From the IMG/VR virus record IMGVR_UViG_3300031823_000001, positions 64,001 through 128,000 of that record: a stretch of DNA of 64,000 bases. One strand, 5' to 3'. The position numbers were made by a program, and so were the translations under genes. Positions 41,153 to 48,921 of this stretch are shown piece by piece. Each line of letters begins with the position of its first letter. Positions within the stretch are counted from its first letter, which is position 1. Below the pieces are notes generated by a model. It was not told the DNA's origin and did no database searches. It was given only the letters and a program-made list of their open reading frames with translations. Source of the DNA: a virus.

Positions 41153-42697
41153 GTGGCCAACTACCGTCTTTTCCCTTCGACGAGCGGCCCGGCGCTTACC
41201 AGCTACACGGGCAAGTTCATGGCGGGGGTCGCCTTCCAGGTCACCGAGGGCGCTACCTGGCTGTCTGGTTTCTGGTGGTGGGTTCCCGCCGGGGGCGATA
41301 CCGCCGCCCAGGAGTTCTGCCTCTGGCAGCTCACCGCCGGGCTCGCGGGCATCGTCGTGCCCGCGACCACGGTCACGTCCGGGACGCTGACCGCCGGGGC
41401 GTGGAACTACGTCGCGCTCGCTTCCCCGGTGGGGCTTACGCCGGGAATCCCCTACCTGGCTGAGACCGCGTACACCGCCGCCCACGGCTTCCCTGAGACG
41501 CACGGCCAGTTCGGCAGCGGGGACCCGTACTCCGCAGGAATCACCAACGGCCCCCTGTCGGCCTACTCGGACGCGTCCGGGTCGAACCCGGCGCCGTCCG
41601 GCTGGGTGACCCAGGGGTCTTTCGGCACCGCCTACAGCGTCCCTACCTCCGGTATCCCCAACCTGGGGTCGGACAGCAGCAGCAACTTCTGGCTGGACGT
41701 CCAGGTCACCGACACGCTCCCCGCAGGAGGAAGCTACCGGCTGTGGCCGTCGCTGCCGCTGCCGCAGGGGATGATCCAGGACTCGGCCGCGAACTTCACC
41801 CTGGCGACCGAGTTCGTCCTCTCCGGGTCGTGCTCGCTGGACAACATCTGGTTCTACTCCCCCTCCGGCGCGCCTAACCTGCCGACAGAATGCGGCATCC
41901 TCGGCCAGACCTCCCAGGCGCTGGTCAGCGGCACGCACGTCACCTCTCCCTCCTGGTCGGGGGCGGCCGGGTCGGGGTGGGTAGCGCACGCCTACACCGG
42001 GGTCACGCTGCCCGCCGGGGCCTACCGGGTCGCGGTGGCCAACTCCGACGGCACCGCCGGGGCATGGAACGACGCGACCGTCGATTACTTCCTCACCGGG
42101 GCCGGGTCGGCGGGACTCACCGCAGGGCCGTTGTCGGCCCCGCCGAACAGCACGGCGGGCAGCCCCGGCCAGGGGTCCTACAACTCCGGTGCAACCCTGG
42201 CGTGGCCCGGCACGTTCGACACCGGCCACGCGCCGTCTTACTGGGTGGACGTCGAGGTCACACCTGGAGCCACCATCGACTCCGGGTCAGCCGCCCTGGC
42301 CGCGCTGCCGTCACTCGCGGCAGCCGGCACCCGGACAGTCCTCGCTTCAGCTCACGTCACCGCCGCCTCTTCGCTTTCGGCGCCCGGGACAAGAGCGGTT
42401 CCCGCTGCCGCCGCGCTGTCGGCACCGGGGGCGCTGTCGGCTCACGGCACGCTGTCGGTCCGCGCCGCCGCCTCGGCGGCTGCGCTGGCGCGGCTCTCGG
42501 CGGCAGGGGCGGTTCCGGTCACCGCTGGTGCGGCACTGGGTGCTTCCGCCGTATTGACGTGCTCTTATCTTCCCGCACGAATCGTGATCGCCGCGAATAT
42601 CATGTTCCCAGATAACCAGTCTGGGATATACGGGGCCAGTGAGGCTGAGACGACCGTAATAGTCCCTGGCGTGACAGACGGGATTTACAGCTCATGA
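41153..42697 (+). CDS. DUF4082-like tandem domain surface protein
   Basis: Two repeats YRL(F/W)PS...(F/Y)W(L/V)DV.V; Ala-rich tail. Confidence 0.7.
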   Translation: MANYRLFPSTSGPALTSYTGKFMAGVAFQVTEGATWLSGFWWWVPAGGDTAAQEFCLWQLTAGLAGIVVPATTVTSGTLTAGAWNYVALASPVGLTPGIPYLAETAYTAAHGFPETHGQFGSGDPYSAGITNGPLSAYSDASGSNPAPSGWVTQGSFGTAYSVPTSGIPNLGSDSSSNFWLDVQVTDTLPAGGSYRLWPSLPLPQGMIQDSAANFTLATEFVLSGSCSLDNIWFYSPSGAPNLPTECGILGQTSQALVSGTHVTSPSWSGAAGSGWVAHAYTGVTLPAGAYRVAVANSDGTAGAWNDATVDYFLTGAGSAGLTAGPLSAPPNSTAGSPGQGSYNSGATLAWPGTFDTGHAPSYWVDVEVTPGATIDSGSAALAALPSLAAAGTRTVLASAHVTAASSLSAPGTRAVPAAAALSAPGALSAHGTLSVRAAASAAALARLSAAGAVPVTAGAALGASAVLTCSYLPARIVIAANIMFPDNQSGIYGASEAETTVIVPGVTDGIYSS

Positions 42698-43335
42698 GCA
42701 TGCAGCAGCACTCGGCAGCCACCGCCCTGCTCGCCGACCCTTCCGTGCGCGCCGACCCGGGACAGTCTTTCAGCACAGTGCAGCGCGGATATCACAAGGG
42801 CGAGGTAGACGACTGGGTGCGTTCGGCCCTGTCGGAAATCGACCGTCTCGGGCGCCAGGTAACCGCATTCCTCAGTCACGAGGCGTCCAGCCCCCAGGGG
42901 CAGAAGCTCCTGTCCGAGCTGATGCAGCTCGCCGCCGACGAGGTGACGGGTCAGCGGGCGGCTGCCGTAGAGGAAATCGAGCAGATGATCGCCGGGGCGC
43001 ACCAGCAGTCCGACGGGATCATCGCCGACGCCCGCAGGCAGGCCGAGCAGATCACCGGCAGCGCCACCCAGCAGTCCAGCTCGCTGATCAGCAACGCCCG
43101 CGCCGACGCCAAGAAGACCACCGACAAGGCCGAGGCTTACGCCGCCGCCGTCCGGGAGGCCGCCGAGGCGCGCCTGACGCAGCTCGTCCGGCTCCACGAC
43201 GACGGGATCGCCAGGCTCTCGCAGGTCAACGAGGTGACCGGCAAGATGCTCGCAGCGGAGAGCCAGCGGGGGTCCCTCGCCGACGAGGTGACCAGGGCTC
43301 TCGCCCCGATCACCTCTGCCGCCGAGCAGCGCTAG
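42694..43335 (+). CDS. DivIVA-domain coiled-coil protein
   Basis: FSTVQRGYHKGEVDDWV then long coiled coil (IIADARRQAEQI). Confidence 0.8.
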   Translation: MSMQQHSAATALLADPSVRADPGQSFSTVQRGYHKGEVDDWVRSALSEIDRLGRQVTAFLSHEASSPQGQKLLSELMQLAADEVTGQRAAAVEEIEQMIAGAHQQSDGIIADARRQAEQITGSATQQSSSLISNARADAKKTTDKAEAYAAAVREAAEARLTQLVRLHDDGIARLSQVNEVTGKMLAAESQRGSLADEVTRALAPITSAAEQR

Positions 43336-45390
43336 CTACTCGCCTTCGACGTTCGGTCCCGGGCCGGCCTTCCAGCAGCGGTACCGGGGGTGGTGCACCA
43401 CCTCGTTGTCCCTGTCTTCCGCCAGCCACTTGTGCAGGGTTTCCCGCGCCGGGGCGATCCCCTCCTGGTCGAGCATGTTCCAGATCACCTGGGCGCTGGC
43501 CCCGTCCACCGGCCGGCCCGCGAGGAACTCCCGCATCCTGATCCGCCCGGGATGCAGGTCCTTCTCCGGGTCGGTCAGCCCGCCCCCTTTGACGACCTCG
43601 TCGAAGCGGTCCGTTCCGCCGCTGTCGCCGCTGTACCCGTTCAGGGCGCTGCCGGCCGCCAGGGCCATCGCCGGGACCTTCAGGACGCCGTTCTGCTGCG
43701 CCCGCGCCCAGCGCTGCGCGTACCCGGTGCCCAGCGCCCGCGCGGTCATCGCGTCCAGCCGGGGACGCACCGGGGCGGTGTCGATTTCCGACTGGTAGAC
43801 CGGGCACTCCGGCGGGCACAGCGGGTTGTCGTCGTCTTCGCCGCACACCTTGTCGATGTGGTCGTGGTGCAGGAACTTGGACGGCTGGCTGGCGCGCGGC
43901 CCCCGGCCCATCATGCCGACGCCGGGTGTCTGCGCGAGGAACTGGAGCTGGCGCCCGGCCAGATGGGGCAGGTCGGGGACGATCCAGCTCAGCTCGCTGA
44001 GCTGGCTGGGCCGCAGCGCGAACCTGACGTCGATGTTCGCCTTCATGTCGGTGCTGCCCCCGGCCGAGGTGGTGCCCCGCTGCGACGCCCAGACGGTGGT
44101 GACCGCCTCCGACCGGCCCTTGCGGGTGATCTCGATGCCCTGCTTGATGAACCAGTTATTGGTCATGGCGTCCGCCTGGCCGGCCCGTTCGAGGTCTCCC
44201 CTGGTCCCCGAGATGTCGCTGAACAGGTCGGCCATCTCGTCGCAGACCAGGATGATCTGCGGCCGGCCGGCGGACGGCTTGATCTTGCTCCGGCCGATGC
44301 CCGAGTTCATTCGTACCTCGGTCGCGGCGATGACCGCCTCGATCATCAGCGTCGCCTCGGCCCGGTCGGTGGCGATCCAGTCGATCGGCGGCATCCCGGT
44401 GCGGCCTTCCTCCCACGCCTGGAACCAGGGCTTGATCGCCCGGCCGCCCTTCATGTCGATGGCCCAGATCACCGTGTCCACGCAGCTCGCAAGCTGGGCG
44501 ATGAGCACGTTGATCAGGTTGCTCTTCCCGGACCCGGTGGAGCCGACGATCATGATGTGGACCTCGCGGACCGGCACCTTCAGGTACGAGCCGTCCTCCT
44601 GGACGCCGACCACGATCTCCTCGGTGCAGGTCCGGGACCGCACCTCCGGGGTGAGCAGGTGGGTGCCCTCCATGCCGTCCTGCTCGCGGAGCTTCATGAG
44701 CACCTCAGAGGAGGTGGCGCCGGCCTCGAACATGCAGGCCCCCTCCTGCGACTGGAGGGCTACCTCGAAGTTGCGGGCCTTAGCCCGGAAGTCATCGATG
44801 GTGACCTTGCCGGACTGGGGGAGCCGGATGCGCACCTGGCGGCCCCAGCGTTCCTCGGTGAGTCCGGTGACTTCCACCGGGACGACCTCACCCGTGATCG
44901 GGTGCACGCCGGCGGTGATGCCGAAGTCGGCGAACATCGTGGCGAACAGCTCCCGCTGGACCTGGTTCTCGTCGGGCTCCGGAGCGATCATGAGGGGCTC
45001 GGGCACGGCGGTGAGCGCGATGGGCTCCTTCTTCGGGTGCCGCCTGTGCCAGGCGGCGACGCCCAGGGGGACGAACGCGAACGCGCCCGCGAGGAAGCCG
45101 CCGATGACGTTCCCGTGCCACAGGCCGGCGGCCTGCGCCCAGGCGGTCCAGCCGCCGAGGAAGCCGCCGAAGCCGAACAGGTAAAACGGGAAGAGCTTGC
45201 GCCCGGTGACGCTCCACGTCACGAGCGCGGTACCCGTCGAGGCGATGATCTCCGACGCGGGGAGCACCCACCCGGGAGCGCTTGTCCCCGAGAGGATGGC
45301 CTCGGCCCCGAGCGCGGCAACGGTGGCCAGGCTGATCCACTCAGCCGGGTGACCGTACTTCTGGTAACCCCCCTCAGGCTCCTCTTCCAC
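43336..45390 (-). CDS. traB: TraB-like FtsK/SpoIIIE DNA translocase
   Basis: N-term TMs, GSTGSGKS, WAIDMKGG, VCDE, GRSEAV, SQR; C-term wHTH-like. Confidence 0.85.
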   Translation of the reverse strand: MEEEPEGGYQKYGHPAEWISLATVAALGAEAILSGTSAPGWVLPASEIIASTGTALVTWSVTGRKLFPFYLFGFGGFLGGWTAWAQAAGLWHGNVIGGFLAGAFAFVPLGVAAWHRRHPKKEPIALTAVPEPLMIAPEPDENQVQRELFATMFADFGITAGVHPITGEVVPVEVTGLTEERWGRQVRIRLPQSGKVTIDDFRAKARNFEVALQSQEGACMFEAGATSSEVLMKLREQDGMEGTHLLTPEVRSRTCTEEIVVGVQEDGSYLKVPVREVHIMIVGSTGSGKSNLINVLIAQLASCVDTVIWAIDMKGGRAIKPWFQAWEEGRTGMPPIDWIATDRAEATLMIEAVIAATEVRMNSGIGRSKIKPSAGRPQIILVCDEMADLFSDISGTRGDLERAGQADAMTNNWFIKQGIEITRKGRSEAVTTVWASQRGTTSAGGSTDMKANIDVRFALRPSQLSELSWIVPDLPHLAGRQLQFLAQTPGVGMMGRGPRASQPSKFLHHDHIDKVCGEDDDNPLCPPECPVYQSEIDTAPVRPRLDAMTARALGTGYAQRWARAQQNGVLKVPAMALAAGSALNGYSGDSGGTDRFDEVVKGGGLTDPEKDLHPGRIRMREFLAGRPVDGASAQVIWNMLDQEGIAPARETLHKWLAEDRDNEVVHHPRYRCWKAGPGPNVEGE

Positions 45391-45402
45391 TGTTGCCTCT
45401 CC

Positions 45403-45516
45403 TGTGACCCGGAGTGTGACCCGGAGTGTGACTGTGACTGTGACTTATCTACTTTCCCAGATAACGAGAACTGTGACGAGCGCCGGGATCTTCCCTGGCG
45501 GCGCGCCGGCGTCACA
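45403..45516. repeat. TGTGAC / GACCCGGA direct repeats (clt-like or operator)
   Basis: TGTGACCCGGAG x2 then TGTGAC x3, another at 45472, inverted copy 45511. Confidence 0.75.
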
Positions 45517-45658
45517 CTGTCCCGGCGCACCAGTGCGCCAGGACCCGCCACCTGACGCGCCGCCTCACACTCTGGCGCGCACCAGATTCGGTAGACACAT
45601 TACAGGTTTTCTTGATAAGTTGGAAGCCGCAAGGAACGAGCAGCCAAAGGAGCACCGA

Positions 45659-47026
45659 ATGAACGCGCCAGTTACCGCACCAGAGACAGATCCCGTCGCC
45701 GCAGCCCGCAACGCGGTGCGCACCAGGTGGAGCGCGCACCAGTCGCAGCAGGCGGTGCGCCAGGCGGCGCGGGAGGAAGAGCGCGCCATCAGGGACGAGC
45801 GGCGCGGGGCGCGCCGGGAAATGCGCCGGCTGCACCGGGAAGACCGCGCCGACCGCACCGCCGCTGCCGCTGGTGCAGCCGGCGGGTGGGTGCGCCGCGC
45901 CGCGCCGGTAGTCGGTGCGGCCGTACCTGTCGCCCTCGTGAACGCCACCGCCTTCGTCGGCCAGTTCGCCTACATCAGGGACCACGTGCCGTGGGTTCTC
46001 CCCGGGCAGATCCTGGTGGCCGCCACCTTCGAGTCGGTCGCCGTCTACCTGGCCTGGCACGCGCACATGGCGATGATGAAGAACGACTCGGCGACCCGCC
46101 TCAAGCTGGGCGCCCAGCTCTTCGCCCTGATCATGGCCGCGATGAACTACAGCCACTACGCCGTCCACTGGCGTCCCACTGTCCTGGCCGTGGGCCTGGG
46201 CCTGATGTCGCTGCTGTCCCCGTCGCTGTGGGGCATCTACTCCCGGCGCGCCGCCCGCGACAAGCTGATGGAGCGCGGCCTGATCGAGGAGCACGCGGTG
46301 CGCCTCGGCGCGAACCGCTGGACGTGGCACCCGGTGCGCTCCGTTGCCGTCATGTGGCGCGCCACCTGGGTCGGCGAGAACGACCCGAAGCGCGCCATCG
46401 GCCTGTACGAGTCGGCGCAGGTCTCGCGCCGCGCCATCCGGTCGGCGCGCCGCGCCAGCGACGGCGCGCCAGGTGCGCCGCGCCAGGGTGGCGCGCCAGA
46501 GGCGGCGCAGCCCGCGCCGGTACCCGCGCCGCGCCAGGAGGCCATCGCGGCTGGCGCGCCACTGGCGCAGGAGTCCCCGGCCGCGCCGCTGCCAGTCGGC
46601 ACCGACGGCACGCCGCTCCAGTGGCCGGGCCTGGCGCAGTACGCGCAGCAATCGGCCCCGGCCGCCCTGATCCCCGGCACCACCCTGAACGGCCACCCGG
46701 TCGCGGACGTGAAGGCTATTGCGGAACTGGCCGCGACGCCTACCCTGAGTGCATCGCACCCGATTGACCCGCAGCGCGTCGTTGATGCCGAGCTGCACCT
46801 GGCGGGACTTGCCGTCAGCGACCTGCCGTCTGAGCGCGTTGTCTCGCGGATTCTCTGCCCCGAGCACGACCACCGCCGCCACGCCAAGGCGCTGCTCCAG
46901 GCGCGCCGCGCCGCCGGCCAGGACCCGCTCCCCGCGTTTGTCCAGCGTCAGCGCCCGGCGCACGCCCCCACGGTCATCGCCACCCCTGCCGCTACCCTCC
47001 CAGGAGGCATCCAGGCTCATGGCTAG
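45659..47026 (+). CDS. DUF2637/Spd-like membrane protein
   Basis: Coiled N-term, four TMs (FESVAVYL..MNYSH), Pro/Ala-rich C-term. Confidence 0.7.
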   Translation: MNAPVTAPETDPVAAARNAVRTRWSAHQSQQAVRQAAREEERAIRDERRGARREMRRLHREDRADRTAAAAGAAGGWVRRAAPVVGAAVPVALVNATAFVGQFAYIRDHVPWVLPGQILVAATFESVAVYLAWHAHMAMMKNDSATRLKLGAQLFALIMAAMNYSHYAVHWRPTVLAVGLGLMSLLSPSLWGIYSRRAARDKLMERGLIEEHAVRLGANRWTWHPVRSVAVMWRATWVGENDPKRAIGLYESAQVSRRAIRSARRASDGAPGAPRQGGAPEAAQPAPVPAPRQEAIAAGAPLAQESPAAPLPVGTDGTPLQWPGLAQYAQQSAPAALIPGTTLNGHPVADVKAIAELAATPTLSASHPIDPQRVVDAELHLAGLAVSDLPSERVVSRILCPEHDHRRHAKALLQARRAAGQDPLPAFVQRQRPAHAPTVIATPAATLPGGIQAHG

Positions 47027-48818
47027 CATCCTCCCGTCGTCCCCGCCGCCGTCCGGGTCCCGGCTCCACCTCGCAAGGAGAGCCGGGATCGGCGTCTGCG
47101 CAGGCGCCGTCGTGCTCGGCGGCCTGGGGCACGTCATCGGCTGGAAGTCAGCCGGCATCCTCGCGGCGTGCGCCGCTGGGGCCGCCGCGCTGTTCTTCCT
47201 CGTGCGCGGCATCCGCCAGCGCAGGTCCGGCGGCCTTCCCCCGGGCTTGCGGGGACTGCCCCCGGGCCTGCGGGGCGGCGGCCGGATTCCCGGCCTCCCG
47301 CGCGGCCTCGGCCGTGGCGGTCTGCCCCGGGGGCTCGGCCGTGGCGGCCTGCCTCGCGGATTTCCCCGTGGCGGCCTGCCTCGCGGATTTCCCCGTGGCG
47401 GCCTGAAGATGCCCCGGGGAGTTGGACGCGGCCGTCTCCCGGGCGGGATGCGGTCGTCTCTCCCCAAGGGGATGCGTGCCCCGGCGTCGCGCTCGCGCAT
47501 GCCCGGCCTGGCGTCCCGTTCCGGCCGCAGTGCCGGTCCCGGCCGCAGCAAGGGCGCACTCCCGGGCGGCTCGCGCAGCAAGTTCCGGCCGCGCGCGGCT
47601 GGCGCTCCGGCGTTCCGTTCCTCGCGGGCCAGCGGGCGCCCCGGAGCCCGGGCCGGCTCGCGTGCCGGGTCGCCGGGATCTTCGCGCAGAAGCGGCGGGA
47701 TCGGCTCGCGCGCTTCCGGCGGCCTGCCCCGCAGCGGGCGCACCTGGGGCGGCCGGCGTTCCGGGCTCGGGTCCGGCAGTGCCCGCACCGGAAGATCCCG
47801 CTCCCCGGGCGCCAGGCCCGGCGCTCCGGCGCGGGTGAACGGCTGGCGCAGGGCCGTCCCACCGAGGATGCGCCCCGCGTCGTGGACCGGCGGCACGCCC
47901 GCCCCGGCGCGCGGGTGGCGCAAGCTCATTCCGCCGCGCCTGCGCCCGGCCGCACCGGGCACTATCCCGAACCCGTCCGCCGGCGCGACCAGGCGGCGCG
48001 GTACCAGGCGCAGGAACAACTTGAACAAGCCGCCCCGCGTCCGGCTGCGGCGCCGCTGGTTCCGCCGGCCGGGGCGCCGGGTGAAGGGACCGAGGCCGGT
48101 GCGTACGCACAAGCTGCGGCCGTTCACCCAGGCGTGGCTCCTTCACCATGTCGGCCGGTACGGCCGGCGCCGCAACCGGAGGCAGACGGCGCGGCAGGCC
48201 CGCAGGACAGCCAGCACACGCCGGAGATCAATTCGCGGCAGGATGCGCAGAATGCAGGCTTTCTTGATAAGGTGGAGGCTCAGAAAGAAGAACAGGACGC
48301 AGGCACCGAGCGCTCCGGTGGGTCCGGCGGTAACCATTACGCCGCCGAGCAGGACCGCCGACCCGGATGCTCACCGCCGGCCCCGGCCGGCCCGTCCGCG
48401 CCCAGGACCCGCCGCTCCGGCCGGAGCGCCTTTCGCGGGCCAGCCGAGTTCCCCAACCGGAGGACAAATGCCCAATGTCACCTCTGCTCCGATCGAGCAG
48501 GTTATCGAGGCGATCAACTCCGCCTTCGGCAACTTCAACCCCGAGAGCGTCGTCCCCGACGTGGAGGCGTTCCTGGAGAACCTTCCCAAGGTGTTCGACG
48601 CTCTCGACGCCAACATCAAGAAGGTCGCCGGCCGTATGGACGAGGACCTGCCGGTCCACAAGGACGTAGGCGAGGCGCTGCGCGAGCTTATCCCCCCGCT
48701 CGGCGGCCTGTCCGAGCGGGCCGAGGAGGCCTACACGACCTTCAAGAACCGTCACGCGCAGGAGCTGGACCAGCACTACAACCCGCGCCCGCACGAGGAG
48801 GCCTGGAACCGGCGGTAG
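47019..48818 (+). CDS. Arg/Gly-rich membrane protein with folded acidic C-term domain
   Basis: SD AGGAGG, two TMs, GGLPRG repeats; internal ATG 48468 with SD GGAGG. Confidence 0.65.
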   Translation: MASILPSSPPPSGSRLHLARRAGIGVCAGAVVLGGLGHVIGWKSAGILAACAAGAAALFFLVRGIRQRRSGGLPPGLRGLPPGLRGGGRIPGLPRGLGRGGLPRGLGRGGLPRGFPRGGLPRGFPRGGLKMPRGVGRGRLPGGMRSSLPKGMRAPASRSRMPGLASRSGRSAGPGRSKGALPGGSRSKFRPRAAGAPAFRSSRASGRPGARAGSRAGSPGSSRRSGGIGSRASGGLPRSGRTWGGRRSGLGSGSARTGRSRSPGARPGAPARVNGWRRAVPPRMRPASWTGGTPAPARGWRKLIPPRLRPAAPGTIPNPSAGATRRRGTRRRNNLNKPPRVRLRRRWFRRPGRRVKGPRPVRTHKLRPFTQAWLLHHVGRYGRRRNRRQTARQARRTASTRRRSIRGRMRRMQAFLIRWRLRKKNRTQAPSAPVGPAVTITPPSRTADPDAHRRPRPARPRPGPAAPAGAPFAGQPSSPTGGQMPNVTSAPIEQVIEAINSAFGNFNPESVVPDVEAFLENLPKVFDALDANIKKVAGRMDEDLPVHKDVGEALRELIPPLGGLSERAEEAYTTFKNRHAQELDQHYNPRPHEEAWNRR

Positions 48819-48835: not shown

Positions 48836-48879
48836 AGAGGGCGGGACGGTCTCCTCCCCAGGCCGTCCCGCCCTCTTTT
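48836..48879 (+). terminator. Intrinsic terminator
   Basis: AGAGGGCGGGACGG..CCGTCCCGCCCTCT TTT. Confidence 0.85.
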
Positions 48880-48921
48880 ACGTCCTTGTGCAGATACAGC
48901 TTTTCTTGATAATCTGCTCCC

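Follow-up and report, generated by a model that had tools for sequence, protein, structure and literature searches.

A TraB/Spd-type DNA translocation module with an adjacent DivIVA-like gene, resident in a clade of ~160-kb myophages

What use could a myophage have for genes that resemble the DNA transfer loci of actinomycete plasmids? This question is raised by positions 42694–48818 of the DNA analysed here, a window of 64,000 nucleotides which corresponds to bases 64001–128000 of IMG/VR record IMGVR_UViG_3300031823_000001, a single viral contig of 161,740 bp. An earlier note, made from the letters of the window alone, had described the locus as an actinomycete conjugation module with a DivIVA-like gene beside it, resident in a myophage, and had taken the virus for a phage-plasmid able to spread by conjugation or across septa as well as by virions. 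In following up this note, we found that three neighbouring genes of the locus are homologous to genes of TraB/Spd-type transfer loci, that the complete arrangement recurs in ten related viral contigs, and that the phage-plasmid part of the reading is unsupported. We propose, tentatively, that the module acts as a translocon during infection. The features on which the argument is built are listed here with coordinates, strand and the basis of each assignment.

42694–43335, plus strand: DivIVA-like protein, 213 aa (Pfam, family profile, synteny)
43336–45390, minus strand: TraB-like double-stranded DNA (dsDNA) translocase of the FtsK/SpoIIIE family, 684 aa (Pfam, phrog, structural model)
45391–45658, no strand assigned: divergent control region with repeat array (sequence, repeat scan)
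45592–45625, plus strand: predicted promoter of the spd-like operon, TAGACA-N18-TAAGTT (motif ACAGGTTTTCTTGATAAG as spacer)
45659–47026, plus strand: SpdB/DUF2637-like integral membrane protein, 455 aa (transitive profile matches)
47019–48818, plus strand: TraB-partner protein, 599 aa (profile of its C-terminal domain, conserved open frame)
48253–48818, plus strand: internal copy of the promoter motif and possible nested gene for the C-terminal domain (motif, GGAGG, in-frame ATG at 48468)
48837–48879, plus strand: terminator-like hairpin ending the spd-like operon (read from the sequence)

Gene models were chosen by codon-position GC content together with a simple coding score, and by these measures the translocase is encoded by the minus-strand open reading frame (ORF) 43336–45390, with GC1/2/3 of 0.66/0.49/0.94 and a GC3 typical of the phage. 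Two overlapping frames, the plus-strand ORF 43390–45555, which is longer than the translocase ORF, and ORF 45512–48127 on the minus strand, were rejected as genes, both showing the wrong codon-position GC pattern and no family match. All four genes named in the earlier note could be recovered, the translocase however on the minus strand, and the divergent Spd-like gene with its start corrected from 45404 to the ATG at 45659 behind AAAGGAG. The Arg-rich membrane gene, third of the transfer-type genes, most likely starts at ATG 47019, overlapping the stop of the SpdB-like gene.

The translocase, referred to as the motor in the following, matches the Pfam model PF01580 FtsK_SpoIIIE with 27.3 bits (cut-off 24) and phrog_31069 'FtsK/SpoIIIE-like' with E=3.6e-34. 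An AlphaFold2 (AF2) model based on 31 homologues, with a predicted local distance difference test (pLDDT) value of 83.8, predicts four N-terminal transmembrane (TM) helices (residues 8–117), a beta-rich domain (159–235), an alpha/beta motor region (~259–506) with Walker A GSTGSGKS and Walker B DE, and a C-terminal unit of three helices and a two-strand hairpin (614–675, pLDDT 84–93), which resembles a winged helix-turn-helix (wHTH) domain. For the C-terminal 115 aa, phmmer found no sequence match in the PDB. Both Walker motifs and an SQRG segment are invariant across the 31 homologues. Foldseek searches with the model returned TcpA and FtsK at E 1e-15 to 6e-14. In VIA comparison, the conjugation coupling protein TcpA reached Z 28.8 and the dsDNA-bound FtsK motor Z 26.9, the latter with a root-mean-square deviation (rmsd) of 3.3 Å over 336 residues. 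By fold, Walker motifs and its ATQR-type segment, the motor belongs to the FtsK/SpoIIIE–HerA superfamily of dsDNA-pumping ATPases. Set against FtsK/SpoIIIE and pCW3 TcpA as known systems, it shares the motor fold (Z 25–29, rmsd 3.2–3.3 Å over ~335 residues to dsDNA-bound FtsK), but sequence identity amounts to 16–19%, the N-terminal TM domain and the linker are different, the gene lies beside transfer-type partners, and no genome-wide skewed motif like the FtsK-orienting polar sequences (KOPS) was found.

The top named NCBIfam model for the motor is plasmid_TraB NF041214, matched over residues 192–358 only and with 29.4 bits far below the curated equivalog cut-off of 800 bits. Judged from its modelled architecture, the motor thus appears TraB-like, yet it falls outside the curated TraB family. 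Its nearest relatives beyond the clade are FtsK-type genes of Streptomyces plasmids and phage-plasmids at 26–29% identity, further ones occur in P1312, ZL12, Keanu/Hiyaa and BE-cluster phages, and ~95 homologues are known from metagenomes.

The divergently transcribed neighbour encodes a basic N-terminal region followed by a core of four TM helices (~85–195), with a conserved segment RGLIEEHAVRLGANRW and a variable, Pro/Ala-rich C-terminal half. Direct searches stayed below threshold, as hmmscan against Pfam gave no match for this protein or its four clade homologues and the DUF2637 model PF10935, searched on the genome, reached 13.8 bits at 46013–46345 (cut-off 22.8). A profile of the five clade SpdB-like proteins matches 525 cluster representatives, and 15 out of 46 sampled representatives (E<=1e-35) match DUF2637, the best of them at 4.2e-11. 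With 24.8 bits, representative P0256 passes the cut-off in the very four-TM region that aligns to the SpdB-like protein, and the nearest ESM Atlas clusters are SpdB_N/DUF2637 (0.85–0.87; structural TM-score 0.73). Through these intermediates, the protein is transitively homologous to bona fide DUF2637/SpdB (PF10935; SpdB_N PF27080) over its four-TM core. Comparison of the Spd-like profiles with pZL12.73c and with the DUF2637 protein of CP109520 by hhalign gave a probability of ~1%, a procedure that is uninformative against single sequences. The homologues P0256 and P0253 sit in elements with integrase, GntR, Xis-type HTH and WhiB genes, a context like that of actinomycete integrative and conjugative elements (AICEs), and in both a TM-anchored gene of TraB type with a Walker A motif follows two to three genes downstream of the SpdB-like homologue. 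In phage Hiyaa, the homologue is gp98 (59 bits). Outside the window, a second and weak match to the DUF2637 model (13.5 bits) lies on the minus strand at G000:C1:156222–156377, in an open frame of 402 aa which may encode another SpdB-like membrane protein.

The third gene encodes two TM helices (22–62), a central stretch of 410 aa which contains no acidic residue and carries a net charge of +101 (23% Arg, 18% Gly, 14% Pro), and an acidic, conserved C-terminal domain of ~115 aa terminating in NPRPHEEAW, hereafter the C-domain. Public gene callers split or mis-strand this gene. We nevertheless regard it as real, since the long frame remains open across relatives, over 599–703 codons in all five genomes first compared and as ORFs of 1.8–2.0 kb in ten clade loci. 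A hidden Markov model (HMM) of the C-domain, built from five clade sequences, matches pADI95-16c (64 bits; a 580-aa protein of a 10.5-kb plasmid), Hiyaa gp101 (60 bits), Thermobifida phage P1312 064 (53 bits), CP109520 (49 bits), pZL12.72c (44 bits) and CP054917 (42 bits), the carriers including a 152-kb linear plasmid and a pZL12-like circular plasmid with terminase. In all six plasmid and phage matches the C-domain gene stands directly upstream of an FtsK/TraB-type gene, whereas here it is placed in the divergent operon. The phage protein shows the signature of the family, in which a TM-anchored protein of low complexity finishes in a domain of ~115 aa with P-x3-4-(A/K/R)W(D/N) at its end; an ESM Atlas search with the C-domain returned unnamed clusters only.

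A separate C-domain product is possible as well, since within the third gene an internal copy of the promoter motif (48253–48270) is followed by GGAGG and by an in-frame ATG at 48468, from which a nested gene may produce the 116-aa C-domain alone. A similar internal motif stands in the same place in relative L003, judged from the frame-0 translation, and a separate C-domain gene of 113–132 aa is called publicly in relatives L001–L003 and in Hiyaa. In the Hiyaa record (MK279841), a plus-strand ORF of 651 codons at L014 4396–6351 (~67329–69284 of the record) runs over the antisense gp100 and the short gp101 and encodes a TM helix, a Gly/Ser/Arg-rich region and the C-domain; GenBank probably splits and mis-strands one gene there as gp100/gp101. 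The JGI gene calls in L001–L003 split or mis-strand the C-domain gene likewise.

With homology of all three partners at hand, the term conjugation module denotes a three-gene homology and goes beyond an FtsK look-alike. The locus is truly related to the transfer module formed by TraB and Spd genes in actinomycetes. The complete arrangement, consisting of the convergent DivIVA-like gene, the motor, the divergent SpdB-like gene and the long C-domain ORF, is common to ten related viral contigs (four public and six from IMG/VR, most of them 159–166 kb), across which motor identity spans 84% down to 38%. In the four contigs inspected in full, the slot of the module lies between a lysin/SNF2/DinG block and a DUF7239/DUF7229/exonuclease/prim-pol block. 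This synteny, together with the phage's own promoter motif inside the module, excludes recent insertion and misassembly, the earlier note having counted an independent insertion or a misassembly among the outcomes that would overturn it, and by comparison of these sequences the module is a long-term resident of a ~160-kb phage clade.

Beyond this clade, 15 other viral contigs (IMG/VR, L021–L033 range, 16–164 kb) carry TraB-type motors of 23–36% identity, with a C-domain ORF directly upstream in nine, a SpdB-like gene 2–3 kb upstream in three and neither partner in three (L032, L034, L035). Plasmids or AICEs may have been classed as viruses in some of these entries. A 632-aa motor homologue (32% identity) also occurs among metabolic genes of a bacterial metagenome-assembled genome (L005, GCA_027314965.1, contig DAHUZW010000097.1), where no SpdB-like or C-domain partner was recognised from called genes and Pfam matches, the locus not having been scanned with the HMM.

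The DivIVA-like protein remains below the curated cut-offs of its families (PF05103: E=4.2e-6, 27.2 bits, cut-off 28; TIGR03544: 15.9 bits, cut-off 22), and matches in relatives are weaker (E 7e-4 to 0.03). In a newer Pfam release, PF05103.19 and PF28068 are recorded on it and on many of its 33 homologues, and the family profile, searched against the PDB, retrieves the N-terminal domains of GpsB and DivIVA at E 0.0065–0.1. An N-terminal DivIVA/GpsB-type motif, F-x4-RGY-x3-EVD-x-WV, precedes a long coiled coil and is conserved as F-x4-RGY-x3-(E/Q)V(D)-x-(W/F) in 23 homologues. In B. subtilis DivIVA, a Phe precedes the Arg of this motif, and this position is Gln in the phage protein. The AF2 model (helices 35–63, 67–192 and 195–211) is mostly one long helix, and Foldseek found no match with it, long helices being uninformative in this search.

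The start of the DivIVA-like gene overlaps the upstream plus-strand gene by 4 nt, and the gene is thereby translationally coupled to that operon, which contains the lysin, and not to the tra genes. At its other end it runs convergently into the motor gene, the two stops lying on adjacent bases (43335/43336) with neither spacer nor terminator between them, so that transcripts from both sides must collide or overlap. The gene is convergent to the motor in nine out of nine clade loci with sufficient flank; the 15 other viral contigs that carry the TraB-type module lack it, and no homologue of the protein was found in cultured phages. A link of the DivIVA-like protein to the translocon, and with it the tip anchor that the earlier note considered, is thus suggested only by conserved adjacency.

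Between the divergent genes, two copies of TGTGACCCGGAG (45403–45426) are followed by three copies of TGTGAC (45427–45444), a palindrome TTATCT-N8-AGATAA (45445–45464), more TGTGAC/TCACAC copies and GCGCACCAG repeats. The core (G/A)TCACA is under-represented in the genome overall, with 39 sites, and has its sole dense cluster upstream of the motor, where seven sites fall within 300 bp, the count elsewhere never exceeding three. Across the ten clade loci, its density is 17.6/kb in the 340 bp upstream of the motor as compared with 0.23/kb elsewhere (~75-fold). This array is a candidate for a clt, i.e. a TraB loading site, or for an operator array, both of which fit equally.

The spd-like operon is predicted to be transcribed from TAGACA-N18-TAAGTT, a promoter whose 18-nt spacer is a phage-wide motif. 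This motif, TTTCTTGATAA, is present in five copies in the window compared with 0.00 in shuffles, and two of them lie inside the module at 45608 and 48260, as the earlier note had pointed out; allowing for up to one mismatch, ~21 copies occur genome-wide, nearly all of them intergenic. The promoter motif stands at the same place in relatives L001–L004 and is also found at dinG and at genes upstream of the replication block. A sigma-70 consensus scan returned no promoter in the region, the promoter class of the phage departing from the consensus. At the other end of the operon, the terminator-like hairpin has a perfect 13-bp stem (GAGGGCGGGACGG / CCGTCCCGCCCTC) and a 13-nt loop followed by TTTT, and was missed by the consensus scan because the loop limit of the scan is 8 nt. 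The next promoter, TTGTGC-N18-TAATCT, follows at 48886.

The phage is a myophage with a tail sheath (phrog_2839, E=8.7e-40) and baseplate J (E=2e-26) and a genome GC content of ~69%. A near-identity DNA search (megablast) against cultured phages gave no match, and its DnaE is at most ~34% identical to the DnaE proteins of Streptomyces phages. The IMG/VR record lists direct terminal repeats and a CheckV completeness of 100%. The end repeat, located outside the window, is exactly 127 bp long, which is a typical assembler overlap length. It is therefore most simply read as the overlap (k=127) of a circular or permuted genome, and was rejected as a sign of physical ends and of a plasmid state alike. 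Profile searches of the entire 161,740-bp genome revealed neither a tyrosine integrase nor a serine recombinase or resolvase, in line with the earlier note, and no match to ParA (PF01656) or ParB (PF02195), the search for maintenance systems being confined to these two. The genome encodes its own DnaE, prim-pol, exonuclease and lysin, and this gene profile probably fits a virulent phage.

Previous work provides a framework for what such a module could do. TraB hexamers pump dsDNA after repeat recognition, TraB together with SpdB2, SpdB3 and Spd79 spreads plasmids across septal cross-walls, and SpdB2 forms pores and binds DNA and peptidoglycan; spread across septa was already proposed for phage SpdB2 homologues by Thoma et al. 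in 2015 (PMC4447253). By analogy, we favour a reading in which the phage module would work during infection as a translocon of the TraB/Spd type, its most likely task being to spread phage DNA within the mycelium, and we consider the chances of this reading to be close to, though short of, even. The motor would assemble in the membrane at cross-walls together with the SpdB-like pore former, while the basic tether would gather DNA. The motor would then load on phage DNA, possibly at the repeat array by means of its wHTH-like domain, and drive replicating genomes of the phage into adjacent compartments of the hypha. A single infection could in this way draw on a larger part of the mycelium with no need of virions, just as Spd/TraB spread plasmids, and the DivIVA-like protein may position the machine at curved membranes or disturb polar growth of the host. 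A more detailed proposal, namely that a virulent ~160-kb myophage clade has domesticated a conjugation-derived translocon plus a DivIVA-like scaffold for virion-independent spread across cross-walls, with (G/A)TCACA as the loading site, is in our view somewhat unlikely to hold in all its parts.

The closest functional precedent is the pSVH1 locus of TraB with SpdB2/SpdB3/Spd79 (and pIJ101 Tra/Spd). Shared features are a motor of the FtsK family with TM helices at its N-terminus and, as predicted by the model for the phage protein, a wHTH-like C-terminal end, a four-TM neighbour of the SpdB/DUF2637 superfamily, translationally coupled spd genes, short direct repeats beside the genes, and the TraB recognition sequence (TRS) of pSVH1, GACCCGGA (PMC5133688), which occurs twice without mismatch in the divergent region of the phage. 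Differences concern the remote relationship of the motor (29 bits to plasmid_TraB with its cut-off of 800, ~27% identity to plasmid motors), the inversion of its gene relative to the spd-like operon, a conserved repeat core which is (G/A)TCACA and not the TRS, and the carrier, a ~162-kb myophage without Rep or integrase, in which no TraR/GntR regulator gene was noted alongside.

Several observations weigh against spread of phage DNA by the module. None of the four proteins meets the curated cut-off of its named family, so that their placement comes from structure, transitive profile matches and synteny. The repeat array reaches into the 5' region of the TraB-like gene, a place also suited to an operator. 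The TRS copies of the divergent region (45406 and 45418; further copies in the window at 41576, 41822 and 42281) are not conserved in relatives, in which GAYCCGGR occurs only zero to two times each. Genome-wide, GACCCGGA counts 58 copies, compared with 27 +/- 5 after codon shuffling and at a 3-fold excess over dinucleotide shuffles, and ranks first among 560 8-mers of the same composition. However, 35 of the 58 copies encode Asp-Pro-Glu/Asp in frame and this tripeptide is itself 2-fold enriched (49 vs 24), which explains the abundance, and the motif was therefore rejected as a genome-wide KOPS- or TRS-like signal. Furthermore, movement of a 162-kb replicating and possibly concatemeric genome through a TraB pore is without precedent, and the mycelial actinomycete host is only inferred from the 69% GC content and from the taxa that carry homologous modules.

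Among the alternatives, a takeover of the host cell cycle survives best, although we regard it as unlikely. FtsK- and DivIVA-like mimics would here block septation or sporulation, redirect tip growth or disturb chromosome segregation with no movement of phage DNA, which would place them beside the WhiB-, Lsr2- and FtsK-like genes found in many actinophages. Such phage genes have been grouped as host-regulatory mimics (10.1101/2024.02.16.580700), and strict co-conservation of the abutting DivIVA-like and FtsK-like genes in the clade would agree with a joint role of this kind, as would membership of the DivIVA-like gene in the upstream operon with the lysin. The closest relatives of the motor outside the clade are however TraB-type proteins of plasmids, phage-plasmids and phages and not chromosomal FtsK, the motor is accompanied by two further genes specific to transfer loci, and in the 15 other viral contigs the module does without a DivIVA-like gene.

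That the virus is a phage-plasmid which conjugates from hypha to hypha by TraB, like the Streptomyces plasmid-phage pZL12, is improbable. The precedent itself is close, since the 90-kb plasmid pZL12 forms phage particles as well and carries a homologous FtsK-like gene with two adjacent genes, and its transfer was reported to require tra and two adjacent genes (PMC3583192). Systems of the pZL12 type share with the phage a membrane protein (DUF2637 in CP109520), a 690–770-aa TM protein with the same C-domain and an FtsK-like motor, on carriers that likewise encode phage particle genes; DUF2637, C-domain protein and FtsK-like gene are also found together on pZL12-like circular plasmids with terminase. 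In addition, the phage genome assembles as a circle. Yet pZL12 exists in a plasmid state with ParA/ParB, as does its relative pSLE1 carry ParAB, whereas the complete phage genome contains no ParA, ParB, integrase or recombinase, and this leaves the phage-plasmid reading of the earlier note unsupported. The phage's own DnaE, prim-pol and exonuclease fit a virulent phage, the 127-bp end repeat, read as assembly overlap, is uninformative on a plasmid state, and all clade homologues stem from metagenomes and none from a plasmid of an isolate. The pZL12 genes further differ in being co-linear, in the lack of a DivIVA-like neighbour and in a middle protein which is not hyper-basic (Arg 7–8% vs 23% in the central region of the phage protein).

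We attribute an equally low probability to an exclusion or conflict device, a complex that would block or expel incoming phage or plasmid DNA, or pump host DNA out of the compartment. A DNA motor anchored in the membrane and joined by a pore former and a polycationic tether could serve this end, and the early-type promoter class shared with the replication genes would suit it. On the other hand, homologous systems of known function export or spread their own replicon, the conserved cis array beside the genes fits recognition of self DNA, and a signal of defence families was not seen, with no padloc or other search aimed at defence having been made. Very improbable, finally, is a lysis accessory in which the SpdB-like protein would be a holin-like pore for the neighbouring GH25 lysin, 5 kb upstream, and the ATPase incidental, since in spite of SpdB2 having formed bilayer pores and given T7 lysozyme access to the wall (PMC4447253), it leaves the conserved motor, the wHTH-like domain, the basic tether and the repeat array unexplained, and the motif of the spd-like operon matches dinG and the genes before the replication block and not the lysin operon.

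Cultured actinophages already contain the module, which has gone without remark there. In Hiyaa (gp98, gp100–102), and also in Keanu, Spocter and P1312 (063/064), the C-domain gene immediately precedes the gene of an FtsK-type translocase; Hiyaa additionally has the SpdB-like gp98, and its gp102 has the C-terminal RET..W...RY.WK segment in common with the phage motor. These phages have genomes of 60–83 kb and are not demonstrably related to the present clade beyond the module, and their genes, which carry no annotation beyond 'DNA translocase', 'membrane protein' or 'hypothetical', are co-linear, lack a DivIVA-like gene and encode motors of only 23–26% identity. Known already are pZL12 as a conjugative plasmid-phage and FtsK-like genes, which are routinely annotated in Streptomyces phages. 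In the literature searched, we found no report of phage motors accompanied by both plasmid-type partners, of the mis-annotation of these partners in public records, or of a deep myophage clade in which a DivIVA-like gene and a conserved repeat array come in addition.

The module bears on the question of how phages deal with hosts like Streptomyces, whose mycelium is divided into compartments, and ~100 actinophages have FtsK-like annotations with no function assigned by experiment. The speculation of 2015 can now be put as a defined hypothesis, testable by gene deletion in cultured Hiyaa or Keanu. If it holds, a lytic phage would spread from cell to cell inside a multicellular bacterium independently of virions, and if it is false, the module would still be a useful marker of gene exchange between plasmids and phages in actinomycetes.

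Next to the module, the gene upstream of the DivIVA-like gene (41153–42697 here) occupies a variable slot within the otherwise fixed synteny. It encodes a 514-aa protein with a weak DUF4082 match in the present phage, a Laminin_G_3 protein of 448 aa in relative L003 and a 619-aa protein in L001, and the slot is filled by small genes in L002 and L004.

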